Positions 19,985 to 61,455 of a stretch of DNA of 64,000 bases are shown here, piece by piece. Each line of letters begins with the position of its first letter. The first letter of the stretch is position 1. Source of the stretch: Octopus vulgaris (Eukaryota); contig OX597825.1 in NCBI GenBank assembly GCA_951406725.2, forward strand, positions 41,230,001-41,294,000, written 5' to 3'. Under the pieces are notes generated by a model. It saw nothing but the letters and a program-made list of their open reading frames with translations, ran no database searches and had not been told where the DNA came from. The translations under genes and the position numbers were made by a program.

Positions 19985-20357
19985 TTGATGAAGAAGATGG
20001 AAGATATATTTGGCACTAGTCTTTATTCAGTATGACAATCATTTCAACTCATACTGAAATTGTCTGTTATGGGCAGTATTTTGAACATCTAATAGTGTTG
20101 CATAAATCCGTGCAGTTTGTGTCACATCAGATACATACAAAAGGATGGGATGTCCCACTAGATATACTGAGATGACCTATGTATGTTGTTCGTGCCTGCT
20201 GTATCTTGATCAAAGCTTGATGTGATACAAACTGCACAGATTTATGCAGCACAATTAGATGCATAAAATCCTACCCATAACAGTTTCAGAACGAGACAAA
20301 AAGATCGTCGTACTGAATAAAGACTAGTGCCAAATATATCTTCCATTTCCTTCATCA

Positions 20358-20415: not shown

Positions 20416-20447
20416 TAGCATAAAGAAAATTGGGTTAAAAACATTCT

Positions 20448-20620
20448 TGCCTTGGTATAATGGTTAGAATACCTGTCAGATTCGCAGAAGATGTAGATTT
20501 GAGTCCCAATGACTGCCTTTCACTTTTTTCTCATTCAAAAAGGTTTTAACTCAATATTATACACACCATTATAGCATTATCTATTTTGAGTTCCACCATT
20601 AGAAATAGTTTACTTCATAT
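20448..20620 (+). pseudogene. Old tRNA-like (Glu-TTC-like) head element, copy 1 of 3
   Basis: ttggtataatggttagaatacc..attcgc..gatttgagtccc with degenerate A and B boxes. Diverged homologs start at about 21040 and 22913. Confidence 0.5.
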
Positions 20621-21022: not shown

Positions 21023-21299
21023 AACAAAATTTGGAGTGTTGCTTTGGTATATTAGTTAAAGCATCCATCATGTTTGCAGATGCTGATCAAAGTTCTATAG
21101 GTGGCATTCAAATTTTTTCCATCTAAGGAGTTTTTAAACCCAGTATTCCATATTATTATTAATAGCTTTAGGTTAGGTGACAGTCTGGCAGAAATGTTAG
21201 CATGCTGAGCAAAATGCTTTGTGACTTTATGTTCTGAGTTCAAATATCTCCAAAGTCAACTTTGCCTTTCATCTATTTATGGTCAATAAAATAAATATC

Positions 21300-21377
21300 A
21301 GTTCTACATTTAAGAGACGAGGAATTATGTACATTATTTACATTTGATGGATATTCCTAAGGTATTTTTCGATGTTG

Positions 21378-21416
<39 letters not shown>

Positions 21417-21725
21417 TCACTGACTGGAATCAAACTCAGAATCTTGGGGTTGGTAACCTGTGCTCTTAACCATTACGCCATTTGCCCACAGGCATATGGC
21501 ATAGTGGTTAAGAGCACGGGCTACTAACCCCAAGATTCTGAGTTTGATTCCAGTCAGTGACCTGAATACTGATAATAACAACAACATCGAAAAATACCTT
21601 AGGAATGAGAACCCAGGTTCGAAAGTTCCTCAAGACACCTGATGAAGGCTGGAGGATATATCAGCTGAAACGTGTTAACAACAAACAAGATGAGGACAAA
21701 TATCCGTCAAATGTAAATGATATAA
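21300..21725. mobile_element. Palindromic element with two divergent tRNA-like units and a hammerhead motif (Penelope-associated/retrozyme-like)
   Basis: Inverted arms: atttacatttgatggatatt / aatatccgtcaaatgtaaat and attcctaaggtatttttcgatgttgttg / caacaacatcgaaaaataccttaggaat. tRNA-like halves at 21414-21486 (-) and 21491-21562 (+). Confidence 0.8.
21634..21676 (+). ncRNA. Minimal type-I hammerhead ribozyme motif (degenerate cleavage site)
   Basis: gacac-CTGATGA-a-GGCTG-gaggatatat-CAGCT-GAAAC-gtgtt: both conserved core boxes, a pairing helix II, and gacac/gtgtt complementarity for helix I. Confidence 0.6.
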
Positions 21726-22461
21726 ACAAGTACCAATTGCATCAACTGGGGTCGATGTGATTGACGTAACCCTCCCCCCAAATTGTTGGCTTTGTGCCAA
21801 AATTTGAAACCACTATTAATAGCTATATCTACTTTGAGTTCTACCATTAAAAATAACTGGTTTTAGATACATATAACTGCAGTATTGCTAATGAAATCAA
21901 CACAATCCACAAAAATACAAAAACAAATTTGGGTAACCTGAGTAAAGAAAGTGAATATGTGAGTGTATTAAACATCATTGTTATAGATTCCTCTTTTTAA
22001 AAGTTGAAGAGGCTAAGTTTTTTAAGTTATTACACTGGCATTGTAAAAAAGAAAACATTTCCTAAAAACATATATATATTTGAAAGTAATAGCAAATTGA
22101 AAATTCATTTTGAAACACGCCCACACACATGCATACACACACAAACATTGTGAAATTACTTTCTAATACTTTTTAAATTTGAAATTACATTCTAATATAT
22201 ATTTTTAATAAGAAATGTTTTCACTTTTATGATGCTTGTGTAATAATTTCAAAAAATTAGTCTCTTCAATTAAAAAGCGAAATCTGTAATAATAACATTT
22301 AATACATTTATATATGCTTTTTTTTTTTATTCAGGAAACCCAAGTCTATTTTTGTATTTTCTCAGATTGTTTTAGTTTTATAAGCAATCCTGCAGTTATA
22401 TGTATCTAGCCAAACATCATCATATAATTTACTTCTATCTCTCAAAGTCTTTTAATTCTTA

Positions 22462-22852: not shown

Positions 22853-23052
22853 ATTTTGCAATTCTTGTCAGTAAGAACAGAGTCTCTGAAATGGATGGGG
22901 AAAACTAAAGGTTTGCTTTGGTTTACTGGTTTAAATGCCATTCATATTTACAGAAGATATGGGTTTGATTCCCATGGGCAGCTTTTAACTTTTTTCCATC
23001 CAATGGGATTTTCAACCCAATATTCTACACGGTATTATTAATGGCTTTATTA

Positions 23053-36573: not shown

Positions 36574-38944
36574 ATTAAAAAAATTATATGTTGACTCCAA
36601 ATTTTTTTCAATTTTTTCATTTATACATATATATATATGTACATAAGTAATATGTGTGTGTACACACACACACTTGCCTAATGTAAGGCAGTTGATTGGT
36701 AGTATCATTAATTCTTCAGAAATATGCATTCTGAGAATTGTTGCAGTCCTTTTTATTCTGAGTTCAAATTCCATTTGGCCATACACTGCTCTGCACTTGA
36801 TAAAATACCAATTAAGTATTGGAGTCAATATAATTGACTAAACCCTATGTAAATATAACACAACATGGTGTAGATCAATACCTTAAACCAGTACAAGAAT
36901 AAAAGAATGTGGTATATTTTATGACAGTCAGCTTTATTTAGTTTAGATTTCTCTTTGATTTCTTCCCTCCATGATTGATTCTCATAAAGGTAACTGTCAA
37001 TTATACAAGGTGCTTGCTGTTTACAACAAGGAGCTTTTGATCTTTGCAATACCTAATTAACATGAAGAGGATTGAAGTATTAATAAATTAATTCTATTTT
37101 TCTTGGGTCACAGTTCATTGCTATCAGAGGATTATAACCATAAATCTATTGGCTTTAGGCCTACCTTCAATCATTTCATCCAACTACAACTTTCAATCAA
37201 TTATATGTTTACTATATACGGAATAAATGCTCTCAGATAAATCTGTATAACATCTTCTGTGTTGTCACTACTCAAAGGTATTTATGTACCAATTTTTTTT
37301 TTTGATGTATCAATTTTGTTTTTTATGTATCATATGAATAATATTGGTATTCACTTTAGACTAAGTCAACTATGATAGGATTTGAACCTATCAAGCAAAA
37401 TCAGTTACTGACTTTTCATAACTTTCATTAATACAATTACCTAATATCGTTATAGTTCTGTACTTTTCTTAAATTCCATTGTAAACTTGTGCTGCTACAT
37501 CTATAAGAAAATTAGAGTCTTGAAAATACTAGTTTATATTCAGATTTAGATTTCAGAATGAAGGAGTAGCATTCATAAAGAGAACAGCTTCCAAATTTCT
37601 TCATTTATATATACTGTATTAACACCTGACACTATTATCTAGAGACAAATTGAAAGTACAGGAATTTATTTATCAATTTAGTTGTGTAGTTTGTAGATGC
37701 AATACAAATGATCTATTTTTATCTGTTGTCTATACATTCATATGTATTCAGAGCACTGCATGAGGATTATGTGGGATGAATATTTCTTGAAGATATTTAT
37801 GGTAATAAATGCCTATATGTTGCAATATTAATGGACTAGTTAATCGAAGCCAAATCTTGGCGTTAAAATCATTCTTATATCTAGTTAACCCATGTTGTAG
37901 TCGTAATCATCTGGGAAACTTCCAAAAGAACTATCATGTCAGTAATTCAGAGCATAGTTTATTGACTAGAAGCTGGCTCTTAGAATGAAAGTACTGAAGA
38001 GATAATTTCCTTTCACTGAAATTTAGTCAGCAGAATGGCTGAAGCAATTAACTTAATAGAGACAAAACGTTTTGAACACATTTAAAAGTAAAGACCTGAG
38101 GCAATAATTCAGAACATAATAAGATGCTTTAACATCAGTTCAGCTACATGACATCCCTTGGCACTAGACAGATTGGTGAAGGAAAAGAATATTATTCAGC
38201 TAGCAATAAAGAAAAATCACACAAATCTAATAGAATTATTATTAAATAATTTCTCATAATTTTCTTTGTGAAAATAAACCAAACAATTACAACGCATTTA
38301 ACACATGCATTGACTAACTGGCAACAACTTTGGATTTTGTGGTTCATTTTTAAAAGATTTCCTATTTTAACACAACTTACACCAACACCACCCATATATT
38401 TCCATCTCTCAATCTAGTATAGCCTAAAAGGAGCTTGAGGCACTGATTTCTTTCCTTGTATTAATAACTAAAAATAAAATCATATGGACTTGCTTGTTTT
38501 TCCAATAAATATGATCTTATTAAGTGTGTGTACATAGTCAAATATCTAGAAGGCTTGAATGTTTCTCTGTGTGTATCCCATCATTAATATTGTACTCTAT
38601 TCATAACCAAGTTACTAACATAATTCCATTTATCTGTCAGCTATTCTTATGGATAGAAATTATCAACAAGCATTTTATATTCTTAAAATACTGATGACAA
38701 AGCACCATACAGGTTTGCACTATAGTGGATGCACATGTATAATGAATATACCTTAACTAATTATTCCATTTGCATGTTATATGTAAACTACACAACTGCA
38801 AAAAAACTGAATACACAATGCTTCATTTATTTTGCAACTGAGCTGTATGCAGCATCATGTAGTATGGTGATGGTGTACTCACTTCTCTGTTCAGTCTGAA
38901 TAATTTGCAGGTGACTGCAGTAGAGTCAGATATTACTGAGAAGT

Positions 38945-44711: not shown

Positions 44712-47140
44712 GCTGAATTGAAATTGGTCCCACGTCATTACCTCCTCCACAAGGTGTAACAACACTTTGGATCTGCTACTTACTGCTTCTCCTGAAACAA
44801 TTATTAGTGTCACTACTGAAGAACCTTCAGGTGACTCTGATCATTCCATGATCATGGCCAACTTGTCTCTGATTGGCTGTAACAAAAACTACAACCACCT
44901 CCAAACTGCCCACTTTGACTGGAATAAAGCAGACTGGAGCTCTTATTGTACTGAGCTGAGACGCCAAAACTGGCTCGAAGTTTATGCCTCTGGAGATGTG
45001 AACATTATACTTCAGAACATTCTGAATTCAATATGGGTGGCATGTGCAGCATTAGTACCACGCGAGCACAAAAAAACCCACCCAATATTGCAATTTGGGA
45101 GACTGCAGCAGTCCAATTTGCCAGGAAAGAATGCCATAATGCTGAACAGGAATACAAATTGCACAAATCAGAGATCAACAGGTAAAAGCGCAATAGATCA
45201 GCCAACCACCTGAATGAAGCATGTGACAAAATAGGCAGAGCTTGAATTCGAACAATGCATAGCAACAAACCCTGACAGCAAAGTGTTCTGGAAGTACGTA
45301 CACTCAAATCAGTACACTCTCCAGTTGGTCCCCTTCGCAATCCTCACACAGGGCAGATTACTGGCAATCCCAAAGAATGTGCAGAAATCATTGATGGATG
45401 CTATGCAGGCATCTTTACTGTCAAAGATCAAAATGTTCCATCTCCATCACCTCTGACACTGGCATCTGTATCTACTATGAAATTTACTCCAGCAATGCTA
45501 CAATGCCACCTTAAGAATAAACGCAACTATGCCTCTCCTGGTTTTGCTGGTATTACGTACCTACTTCTCAAACACGGTGGGTACTTTCTTCTAAATCAAC
45601 TTTCACTATTCTTCCAATTCTGTCTTGACAATGATGTTACTCCAGAGTAGTGGAAAACTGCCAGTGTTATCCCTCTGTTCAAAAAAGGTGACCGCACATC
45701 ACCTGTCAACTATCGCCCCGTTAGTCTTACTAGCTGCATCACCAAACTGATGGAATCCTGTGTCAGGGAAACCCTCTGGAACTTCTGGAAGTCTCACAGC
45801 CTCATCCAGCCGTCACAATTTGGTTTTATTCCTAACTCCAGCTGCTGTAATCAGCTCATTGAGTTTCTTGAGGACATTACCCAAATCACTGATCACGGAT
45901 CCTGGGTGGATGTTGTTTACCTGGACTTTGCTAAGGCTTTTAACTCTGTGCCACACAAAAGACTTATGGTGAAACTCTCTGCGTTGGGTGTAAGATATGA
46001 TCTCTATAACTGGTTGAAGTCCTTTATTATCGGCCGAAAAGAGGTTGTCACAGTTCTAGGACAGCACTCTTCACCCTATCAGATGACATCTGGTGTACCA
46101 CAGGGATCTGTTCTTGGCCCCCTTTTATTTGTTGCACATGTTAATGACATAGATGCCAACTTAAAGAATGCCACAGTGCTGAAATATGCAGATGACATCA
46201 AGCTGTACCTCGAAATAAAGAGGTCAGATCCTGTACACTATAGATCTCTATTGCAATCAGACCTGGACACAATGCAGCAGTGGATCATGGACTGGCAACT
46301 CAGCTGGCTGTGGACAATGGGAGGGAAAAACCCAGCATCTACTTACTCCCTCCACAACACTAATCTCAAAAAGTCTTCTTGTGAACGTGACCTGGGCGTT
46401 ATTGTTGACAGCGATTTGCATTGGACAAAACACATTGCTAAAATTGCCAAGAAGGCTGAGGGTGTCTTGTCATCACTCACCAAGTCCTTTGTGAGCTGCT
46501 CTCCAGCTATCTATTTGCGGCTTTATATAGCTATGGTACGACCTCACCTGGAATTTGCATCACCAGTCTGGAACACCTATCTTGCCCAGAATATTAATCG
46601 TCTGGAAGCCGTTCATTGAGGTGCAACCAAGAGAATACCCTCAATCAGGCATCTGCCATATTCTGAACGCCTTACTTCCCTGGGCATGGACACATTGAAA
46701 TTCCGACGTCTGGCAGCTGACTTGGCAGACACCCATAAAATTATTAGCCATCTTACAATCAATAACTCTGAGCACCTTTTCAAACTCCACCTGTCTAACA
46801 CCCGTGGACATGTTTACAAAGTCAGAAAACAACACAGCTCCCATGACTTTCGGAAACATTTTTCACGCTGAGAGTTGCTGAAGCATGGAACAGACTGCCG
46901 GCATCAGTAGTTAGTTGTTGGAGCACTGCATCCTTCAAAACTTCCATGCTTCCTGAGATTTGCCAACACTACACCTGATTTTCTCCCCTCCATACACACA
47001 TAAGCATGTATCTGACTCATACACTGTTCGCTTTCCAGACATTTGTACATTACTACATATACTTTATAAGCACTGTTTGACAAGAACTTGTGGTGCACCT
47101 GAGCACTGTATACAATAATTTCATTATTATTATTATTATT
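44712..47140 (+). mobile_element. CR1-like LINE, 5'-truncated (APE C-terminus + RT), with stops
   Basis: TRCNNTLDLLLT...SDH (APE), PLFKKGDR..NYRPVSLTS, YLDFAKAFNSVPH, SGVPQGSVLGPLLF, KYADD and VRPHLEFASPVW, ending in an (ATT)n tail. Confidence 0.93.
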
Positions 47141-59754: not shown

Positions 59755-59910
59755 CTGTTATAGGTACAGATCCTGAGATTTTGTGGGGAGAGGCCTAGTT
59801 GGTTACATCAACTACTGTGTTTAACTGGTATTTATTTCACTGACCCTGAAAGAATAAAAGGCAAAGTTGAGCTTAGTGGAATTTGAACTCAGAATGTAAA
59901 GATGGATGAA
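59755..59910 (-). mobile_element. SINE family B
   Basis: aactggtatttattt..gaccctgaaaga.taaaaggcaaagttga..gaatttgaactcagaa. Confidence 0.78.
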
Positions 59911-61455
59911 CCACACTAACTTTGAACAGTGACAATGAATCTCTCAATGCTGGAGATGTAAGAATTTCATGTGGCATTTTCCAGGGTGACTCTCTATCAC
60001 CACTCCTCTTTTGTCTAGCCTTAATACCTCTCTCGAAATTGCTCAATGATGTACAATATGGCTATAAAATGTTTGATAAAAATATAAATCATATCTTTTA
60101 CATGGATGATTTAAAGCTCTTGCTACAGGGCTTACTAGCAATTGTTAAACAATTCAGTGATAACATCAGGATGCAATTTGACCTCGATAAATGTGCAAAA
60201 GCTACGTTTATCAAACGGGAAATGACAGAAACACCCAACATTAATCTTGACCAGGAGAATGACATAAAAGAGTTAGAACCAGCAGAGAGCTGCAATTGCC
60301 ACAATTGGCTTAAACACCTACCTGAAGAGCTCTAATGAGTGGATATCAAAACTTGCCTTAAAGCATGAAAACAAGAAAGCATCATAATCTGTAACAAAAC
60401 AGGCAAAGGAATATCAAAGTGAATTCCAAATGCAACAAATCCCAGAATTAAACATACTGGATACAAGCACAGAAAAAGTTAAACATATGAAAACCCATGC
60501 TAAAACTGCTGCCTTGGATATTCTCACTGATAAATGGCAAGAAAAACATCTCAATGACAAATACCCAAAGAGAGCTGATAATACCATTGTTGACAAAGCC
60601 CTTATCCATCAATGATTAGTGTTTTCTGGCTTAAAATCAGAAACAGAAGGGTTTATCATAGCAGCTCAAGATCAATGCCTACCTACAAGGAGCTACCCGG
60701 CCAACATATTAAAGAACAGCAGTAGCCTAACATGTCATGTATGTAACTCACGAAATGAAACCATTGATCATCTTGTCTCCATGTGCAGTCTTGTCCCTGC
60801 AGAGTATCTCAACAGACATGATAGAGCAGCACAGTATATTCACTGGGAAATTTGAAAAGACCTGGACCTGCCCCATGATAAAAATTGGTGGGAACACAAA
60901 TCACCTCCATTGCTTGAAAGTGATCACATCTCACTCCTCTGGAACTTCACTGTTCAAACTGACAGAAAGATAGATGCAAATAGGCCAGACATTATATTGA
61001 GGGACTTCAGACAAAAATCATGCCTCCTCATTGATATGACTGTCCAATCGACAAAAATGTATTTCTCAAGACCTACCAAAAACTGAGCAAGTATAAAGAT
61101 GTTGAAATAGAAATTGGCAAAATGTGGAACCTCAAGACTAAAACAATACCTATTGTCATAGACATGCTAGGAATGATAGCAAAGGGGGATGATTCCTATC
61201 TAGTTCAGATACTAGGAAACCCCAAAAGTCAGAAATTCAAAATGTATTCCTCATGGGAACTGCCCATATCCTACGCATTCTTATGTTTTCTTAAACATTC
61301 TCTAGAACAATATTATGTGCAAAATGAAATATATGACACCCTAGGCATAACACCAACAGAAACTTCTAACTTGTTGTTTCTTGAGGTCTCTGGATGAGAC
61401 TTGGAGTCAGCTTGTACAAATACAAAGCAAAAGTCAAACATATAATAATAATAAA
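59911..61455 (+). mobile_element. R4/Dong-like RLE LINE, third family, 5'-truncated and internally deleted
   Basis: GIFQGDSLSPLLFCLAL, HIFYMDDLKL, LKSETEGFIIAAQDQ, CHVC..ETIDHLVSMC, YLNRHD, DANRPDII and MWNLKTKTIPIVI, followed by a (TAA) tail. Confidence 0.9.

Follow-up and report, generated by a model that had tools for sequence, protein, structure and literature searches.

The fold-back between positions 21299 and 21721 of the window (the whole 64,000-nt stretch of Octopus vulgaris DNA that was analysed) is, almost certainly, the truncated and inverted end of a Penelope-like element (PLE), whether its short copies are attributed to transcription by Pol III, to a stall of the reverse transcriptase (RT) or to a Pol II start. 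Each of its arms combines a tRNA-like head, an (AAT)n tract and a minimal hammerhead and is one terminal repeat (pLTR) from an autonomous PLE which encodes an RT and a GIY-YIG endonuclease (EN). We favour an explanation in which an ORF-less, inverted insertion of this repeat carries a tRNA-derived head that probably acts as an internal Pol III promoter, and in which the short RNA would be copied by the element's own RT/endonuclease. The new part is the tRNA-Arg-like head with its A and B boxes inside the pLTR, absent from related elements as far as these were searched.

Layout and state of the window copy

The core of the fold-back is a pair of inverted arms at 21393-21486 and 21491-21584 (94 nt, 89% complementary), and further inverted arms lie outside it at 21353-21394/21565-21606 and 21325-21355/21699-21729. 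At the centre (21484-21493) there is a micro-palindrome of 4-5 bp round the 2-nt loop AC (21488-21489); its bases are also native immediately upstream of the head in ORF-linked copies. The left pLTR copy (21327-21487) is inverted, on the minus strand, and contains a tRNA-like head at 21413-21487 with its A box at 21480-21470 and its B box at 21437-21426. The right copy is direct, on the plus strand, and opens with a tRNA-Arg-like head at 21490-21563 (A box 21497-21507, anticodon-like arm 21518-21530, B box 21540-21551). Outward of this head follow an (AAT/AAC)n tract (21564-21587), which looks like the tail of simple repeats on a tRNA-derived SINE and may have been captured with one, then an ATG (21605-21607), a minimal type I hammerhead (21634-21676; helix I of 5 bp, core 21639-21645, a bulged A, helix II and GAAAC at 21667-21671) and the 3' end of the pLTR without a tail (21677-21721). 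The 28-nt Penelope 'tail' is found at one end only, on the minus strand at 21299-21326, and continues into the ORF in full-length copies.

Much of the original prediction is borne out by this layout. The two head-to-head tRNA-like units that it described are present with all four boxes, each head is followed outward by (AAT/AAC)n, and the right arm holds the hammerhead core that it read there, CTGATGA at 21639 with helix II next and GAAAC at 21667. It was also right that the left arm had lost the hammerhead segment: 95 nt are deleted at a microhomology near 21353-21355, with ATT at both breakpoints, and this deletion is peculiar to the window copy. Neither part is recognised by the programs: Rfam scans covering both the window and an intact monomer returned neither a tRNA nor a hammerhead family, and ARAGORN called no tRNA on the fold-back. 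Rfam also gave a weak mir-885 match.

The unit was said to lie inside a SINE, and it does. The 5' part of the host SINE (21175-21298, plus strand) ends in about 11 nt of a degenerate left target-site duplication, and the degenerate right duplication (again about 11 nt) opens the stretch that holds the 3' part (21722-21815, plus strand). When the element is removed and the flanks are joined, they align to uninterrupted copies of the host SINE in nine matches that cross the junction, with about 13 extra nt, two of them element bases within the join.

In the hammerhead of the family, helix I measures 5 bp, a base is bulged ahead of helix II, which is 5-6 bp long, and loop 3 is palindromic; this hammerhead fits the minimal type I form (CUGANGA / GAAA-NUH) that had been predicted. 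The window copy does not, since its right hammerhead is missing 3 nt at the cleavage site and so has no NUH triplet; with one hammerhead deleted and the other without a cleavage triplet, this copy is predicted to be inactive. Related PLE loci of other organisms keep the core and the layout while their helix II sequences differ; they show 18 distinct forms, and the pattern occurs 0 times in 327 kb of shuffled DNA. We rejected the idea that the 3-nt loss is a scar of cleavage, because the loss was seen in 12 of 48 arms picked by a query that itself carried it and in just 2 of 26 unselected arms. RNA-seq read ends do not pile up at the hammerhead site, which in a fragmented library is uninformative about self-cleavage. 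As a separate observation, the commonest non-CpG core variant falls on core position 7 (10 of 48 arms), the sole free position of CUGANGA, which is a weak hint of ribozyme selection in the source copies.

Minimal hammerheads of low activity which need dimers have been described by Cervera and de la Pena (2014, PMC4209133), as have opposite-strand hammerhead pairs 100-700 bp apart that are truncated PLEs, and an inverted copy with a one-sided tail is part of the account of PLEs given by Craig et al. (2021, 10.1101/2021.04.23.441226). Taken together, the passages of these two papers used here make a palindrome ordinary for PLEs, and the combination of palindrome and hammerhead is ordinary Penelope biology.

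The autonomous element and its insertions

The original prediction expected the unit to be mobilised by a Penelope-type RT/GIY-YIG protein and suggested a search for an autonomous Penelope sharing the same end. Such an element exists in the same genome, and the unit is its pLTR. It was located via locus L051, where an inverted unit with tail is followed by a truncated ORF and then by the unit again; the ORF piece served as a query, and 40 of its 44 listed matches were retrieved. Of these loci, 36 contain the ORF end, and in 30 the head stands 29 nt after the stop codon; five that lack both head and hammerhead represent a single 3'-truncated insertion which was duplicated. Since 16 nt of this query belonged to the head, a second and independent one was taken from the 5' part of the ORF, and among the 20 of 30 loci that were extended the head follows the ORF end in 7 of 8. 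Long copies have a direct 5' pLTR which runs via the tail into the ORF. Across the positions compared in both sets, none is a fixed difference between ORF-less and ORF-linked pLTRs. The proposal of a non-coding element of its own, with divergent Pol III promoters at its core, finds no support in this.

By structural tests the partner is an EN+ PLE of the Penelope/Poseidon type, the clade name being drawn from motifs and not from a tree. Its majority ORF is open for 760 codons and contains DKG, GSPLSP and YVDD, then YSIPCxC...H...H, so that a single ORF combines the RT with a C-terminal GIY-YIG domain; the pLTRs are in partial tandem, inverted copies are 5'-truncated and the tail is on one end. 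Homologs (27-67% identity) match RVT_1 (PF00078), some of them also GIY-YIG (PF01541), and Pfam gave no match on two short, broken fragments of L051. The RT-EN linker has neither the Cys cluster of the family of L067 nor a Zn-finger (Neptune/Nematis), and the EN is not N-terminal as in Naiad. A search by GIY-YIG family was rejected as a route to the partner: the 30 loci fetched belong to other families, mostly to one young Neptune-like family which, in these loci, has no sequence in common with the unit. This second and much younger PLE family (L065-L090, for example L067 and L072) has a Cys-rich linker and many open frames of 781 aa, and a loose pattern revealed no convincing hammerhead within 1.5 kb of its endonuclease.

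The ATG of the 5' pLTR opens a frame that runs through the hammerhead and the tail into the RT ORF; in L233 it is open for 110 codons, and the homolog P0005 (53% identical) keeps the same frame with a like motif at its N-terminus. A putative start of the RT ORF thus lies inside the pLTR and would be read through the hammerhead. Indel lengths in the pLTR, counted as a test of coding constraint, include many of 3 and 9 nt, yet also 32 of 1 nt.

The family is large, and the worry that the structure might be single-copy can be set aside: the genome (2.8 Gb) holds 6,623 candidates, and the 49-nt hammerhead form has 721 exact matches compared with 0 for a reversed control. Calibrated 18-mer counts, which are rough, give about 31,000 3' ends and about 17,000 heads. 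Arms are about 5% divergent from their own majority among the best matches. In 58 loci examined, 37 copies are two-ended, and the 28-nt tail is on exactly one end in 35 of the 37. Target duplications measure 9-15 bp, with a score of at least 9 in 20 of 36 loci and in 6 of 1,260 mismatched pairs; that of the window copy is, as noted, degenerate. Inversion, a one-sided 28-nt tail and duplications of 9-15 bp are the marks of Penelope insertion. The arms within one copy share more variants than expected (24 common non-CpG variants over 21 loci, with about 5.5 expected and 0 of 2,000 permutations reaching this), as would be the case if one template made both, and subfamilies or gene conversion could also be their source.

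Two smaller observations concern individual copies. Eleven of 90 copies, counted from a printout (L041, L045, L049, L131, L132, L136, L140, L142, L156, L178 and L187), start within (AAT)n fused to the apparent 3' end of another retroelement, which suggests joining at, or targeting of, the (AAT)n tails of LINEs. At G000:C2:16238376-16239142 the 18-mer of the ORF end occurs six times at 150-bp spacing, a small tandem array of the ORF end.

The tRNA-like head and the 5' ends of copies

The pLTR opens with a head of 73 nt followed by (AAT)n. The head is tRNA-like, in agreement with its predicted tRNA origin: aligned by eye with the genomic tRNA-Arg(TCG) in L255 it is identical in 49 of 73 nt and scores 62.5, where the shuffled maximum is 46, and the choice of parent tRNA is provisional as few isotypes were sampled. 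The A and B boxes fit the consensus at tRNA spacing and the acceptor stem has decayed. Together, head and (AAT)n resemble a simple SINE that may have been captured past the stop codon. No A or B boxes were found downstream of 63 related ORFs or 5' of 25 related hammerheads, many of these loci being shortened or distant. Full-text searches, with Repbase, Dfam and most subscription papers outside their scope, showed no PLE with a tRNA-derived pLTR among the listings and passages covered. Albertin in 2015 reportedly gave an octopus SINE the name 'Twin', and the present family may possibly have been named already there or in the supplements.

The 5' ends of copies pile up at the head. In loci picked by the hammerhead alone, the end of the longest arm falls within -15 to +15 of the first base of the head in 41 of 90, compared with 3.8 expected; ten of the 90 extend further upstream, two of which (L049 at -220 and L161 at -18) are alignment artefacts in counts that were left as computed. 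Exact 18-mer counts at +215, +31, -70 and -392 are 13,182, 6,004, 810 and 611, and calibrated copy numbers at the same points are about 31,000, 17,000, 2,500 and 1,150, which makes a 6.7-fold step across 100 nt at the head start compared with a roughly 2-fold change over 185-320 nt on either side. Arm ends inside the head are scarce: 6 of 57 lie in +16 to +60, where a tRNA fold would stall the RT.

The element is also poor in runs of T. TTTT occurs 0 times in the 2,353-nt majority ORF, 0 times in the 291-nt pLTR and 0-1 times in each of seven aged copies. Most other elements of this genome contain 1.5-5.9 TTTT per kb, two short pieces being without any, and for 55 related PLE ORFs the median is 3.9 per kb, two of them lying at or below 0.5 per kb. 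Shuffles give p = 0.02-0.12 for this scarcity, which is weak taken alone, and the related ORFs of L307 and L325 are equally poor in T runs without A or B boxes, the pLTR of L325 having long T runs. Three raw RNA-seq runs showed no pile-up of starts or ends and no clear splice joint among the rows listed; the reads look unstranded, and 75-80% extend into unrelated sequence, mostly host transcripts. Such a library would lose short RNAs, which makes these data uninformative on the use of Pol III.

From the pile-up of 5' ends at the head, the scarcity of TTTT and the fact that the A and B boxes are whole where the acceptor stem has decayed, we infer that Pol III probably starts just before the head. 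If it does, the element would make its own SINE-like short copies, which we hold to be slightly the better bet; an origin of these copies in SINE-like Pol III transcription is plausible from such sequence features, and one element likely gives rise to the full-length form as well as to short, SINE-like copies in their thousands. In the proposed sequence of events an ancestor would have captured a tRNA-Arg-like head with its (AAT)n tail just past the stop codon, and any pLTR copy could then be transcribed from a start a few bases upstream of the head. The RT/GIY-YIG protein would prime at a staggered cut, leaving a duplication of 9-15 bp, and the cDNA, on reaching the 5' end of the RNA, would fold back on the micro-palindrome and copy itself into the head-to-head form with a tail on one side. 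Cleavage would need tandem copies in a dimer, making the hammerhead a passenger in palindromes.

A different account of the same ends, which we think rather unlikely, is that all short copies are 5'-truncated from a long RNA because the RT stalls, or the cDNA folds back, at a GC-rich hairpin, with the tRNA-like segment a passenger. Such a hairpin (about -11.6 kcal/mol) does span -14 to +10 relative to the start of the head, the micro-palindrome has more exact fold-backs (1,683 matches, some counted on both strands) than read-through junctions (735), ORF-less and ORF-linked pLTRs are one family, and inverted, 5'-truncated copies are normal for PLEs. This leaves unexplained, however, why the A and B boxes are intact beside a decayed acceptor stem and why TTTT is scarce over about 2.6 kb, and a 4-5-bp fold-back is also what would result if the cDNA ran off the 5' end of an RNA here.

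It is more improbable still that Pol II starts in the pLTR from a TATA-like word, which overlaps the stop codon and lies about 30 nt upstream of the head, so that the short copies are pLTR-started and the A and B boxes unused. The distance fits, TATA-like words precede the hammerhead in several related pLTRs, and PLE transcripts are described as beginning in the upstream pLTR in the relevant parts of PMC6765202 and PMC2377424. Nevertheless, the word may be a by-product of codons plus stop, head-started copies would lose it, and no reason is given for intact boxes or for the scarcity of T runs.

An independent palindromic, non-coding element, divergently transcribed, self-cleaving and moving as a whole (a retrozyme or a dimeric SINE), is very improbable and largely refuted: more than 1,000 exact palindromic centres and the many palindromic copies with both heads whole would suit it, but the unit is an autonomous pLTR, centre and arm length differ from copy to copy, the tail is on either arm (8 versus 9), a sole whole head is on the native (AC) side in 5 versus 0 copies (five native-junction copies excluded), and the hammerheads are on opposite strands, which means that a single RNA contains one only. 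The SINE/ribozyme hybrid of its own kind that had been envisaged is thus given up in favour of a known form, the inverted, 5'-truncated Penelope insertion, and a retrozyme, a label which stands for LTR-like or tandem monomers with same-strand hammerheads, circular RNA and no sequence of a coding partner, is not indicated either, as most copies are inverted or single and they are identical to the PLE end.

The preferred reading, in which Pol III starts at the head, can be carried further, to a possibility that we regard as doubtful. The full-length RNA (about 3 kb) of the autonomous coding element would itself be a Pol III product of the captured tRNA promoter in the 5' pLTR, with a coding strand purged of TTTT and an ORF that begins in the pLTR; the same promoter in 3' or solo pLTRs would make SINE-like RNA, and the element would be its own SINE. 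If Pol III does start at the head, the element would allow a test of whether Pol III can produce a long coding RNA of a retroelement, something that Kojima (2024, PMC10886601) thought unlikely for LTR partners in the part of the paper concerned with them.

Known systems and neighbouring repeats

The octopus element shares much with EN+ PLEs such as Penelope/Poseidon: the RT followed by a C-terminal GIY-YIG, pLTRs in partial tandem and an inverted, 5'-truncated copy with a short tail at one end (10.1101/2021.04.23.441226, PMC4209133), as well as a minimal hammerhead with a bulged base and a palindromic loop 3, and hammerhead pairs on opposite strands (PMC4209133). Unlike in these, its pLTR begins with a tRNA-derived A/B-box head and (AAT)n, where most copies end; the Penelope promoter that has been studied is described as internal, LINE-like and TATA-less (PMC2377424). 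The pairing of a SINE with a ribozyme is already known from Sm-alpha and Sj-alpha of Schistosoma, where a short repeat combines a Pol III-type promoter with a hammerhead (PMC6765202); these are characterised there as tandem multimers freed by cleavage, whereas the octopus copies are dispersed, mostly inverted, and equal to the end of an autonomous PLE. The TRIMp3 elements Cassandra, Helenus and Ajax likewise have a small-RNA-derived (tRNA or 5S) Pol III promoter in a terminal repeat, for which SINE insertion was proposed as the source (PMC10886601). They are non-autonomous LTR elements whose autonomous partner is argued to be unlikely to share the repeat (PMC10886601), while the autonomous octopus PLE shares the head. 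ORF-less derivatives with the 3' ends of autonomous families are found among the Chlamys PLEs, for example MRC1, for which the sections of 10.1101/2021.04.23.441226 used here mention no tRNA head and which belong to the Naiad/Chlamys clade with an N-terminal EN and without hammerheads.

In section 4 of SINEBase (PMC3531059), A and B boxes are treated as an indication and no proof. The octopus copies are short, interspersed and far beyond its threshold of at least 100, and the 49 of 73 nt shared with the tRNA exceed its at least 60% identity over at least 60 nt, but they do not form a distinct non-autonomous family mobilised by a LINE, as the head-bearing unit belongs to an autonomous PLE. The short copies act, at most, like a SINE.

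Should Pol III start at the head, the family would show how the capture of a SINE can lead directly to a SINE-like burst driven by Penelope, with about 17,000 heads to about 2,500 ORF ends. The fold-back site is sharp and countable, which recommends it for the study of Penelope inversions and one-sided tails, whose mechanism of formation is called unresolved in the papers cited. Copies of this kind are also prone to mis-annotation as tRNA pseudogenes, as SINEs or, given the weak mir-885 match, as miRNA hairpins.

The window contains several other repeats. Two AT-rich fold-back elements with inverted arms of 60-90 nt (20000-20343 and 21864-22408) are MITE-like, and the pair of direct repeats at 20571/21819 and 20618/22436 is perhaps part of one of them. 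Three diverged short-repeat copies with A-box- and B-box-like words (20447-20530, 21039-21080 and 22913-22996) are perhaps an older tRNA-derived family. Broken LINE ORFs, RTE-like and CR1-like by their motifs, lie at 228-1697, 44722-46619 and 59910-61397. ARAGORN calls a tRNA-Phe of odd length at 37367-37457.
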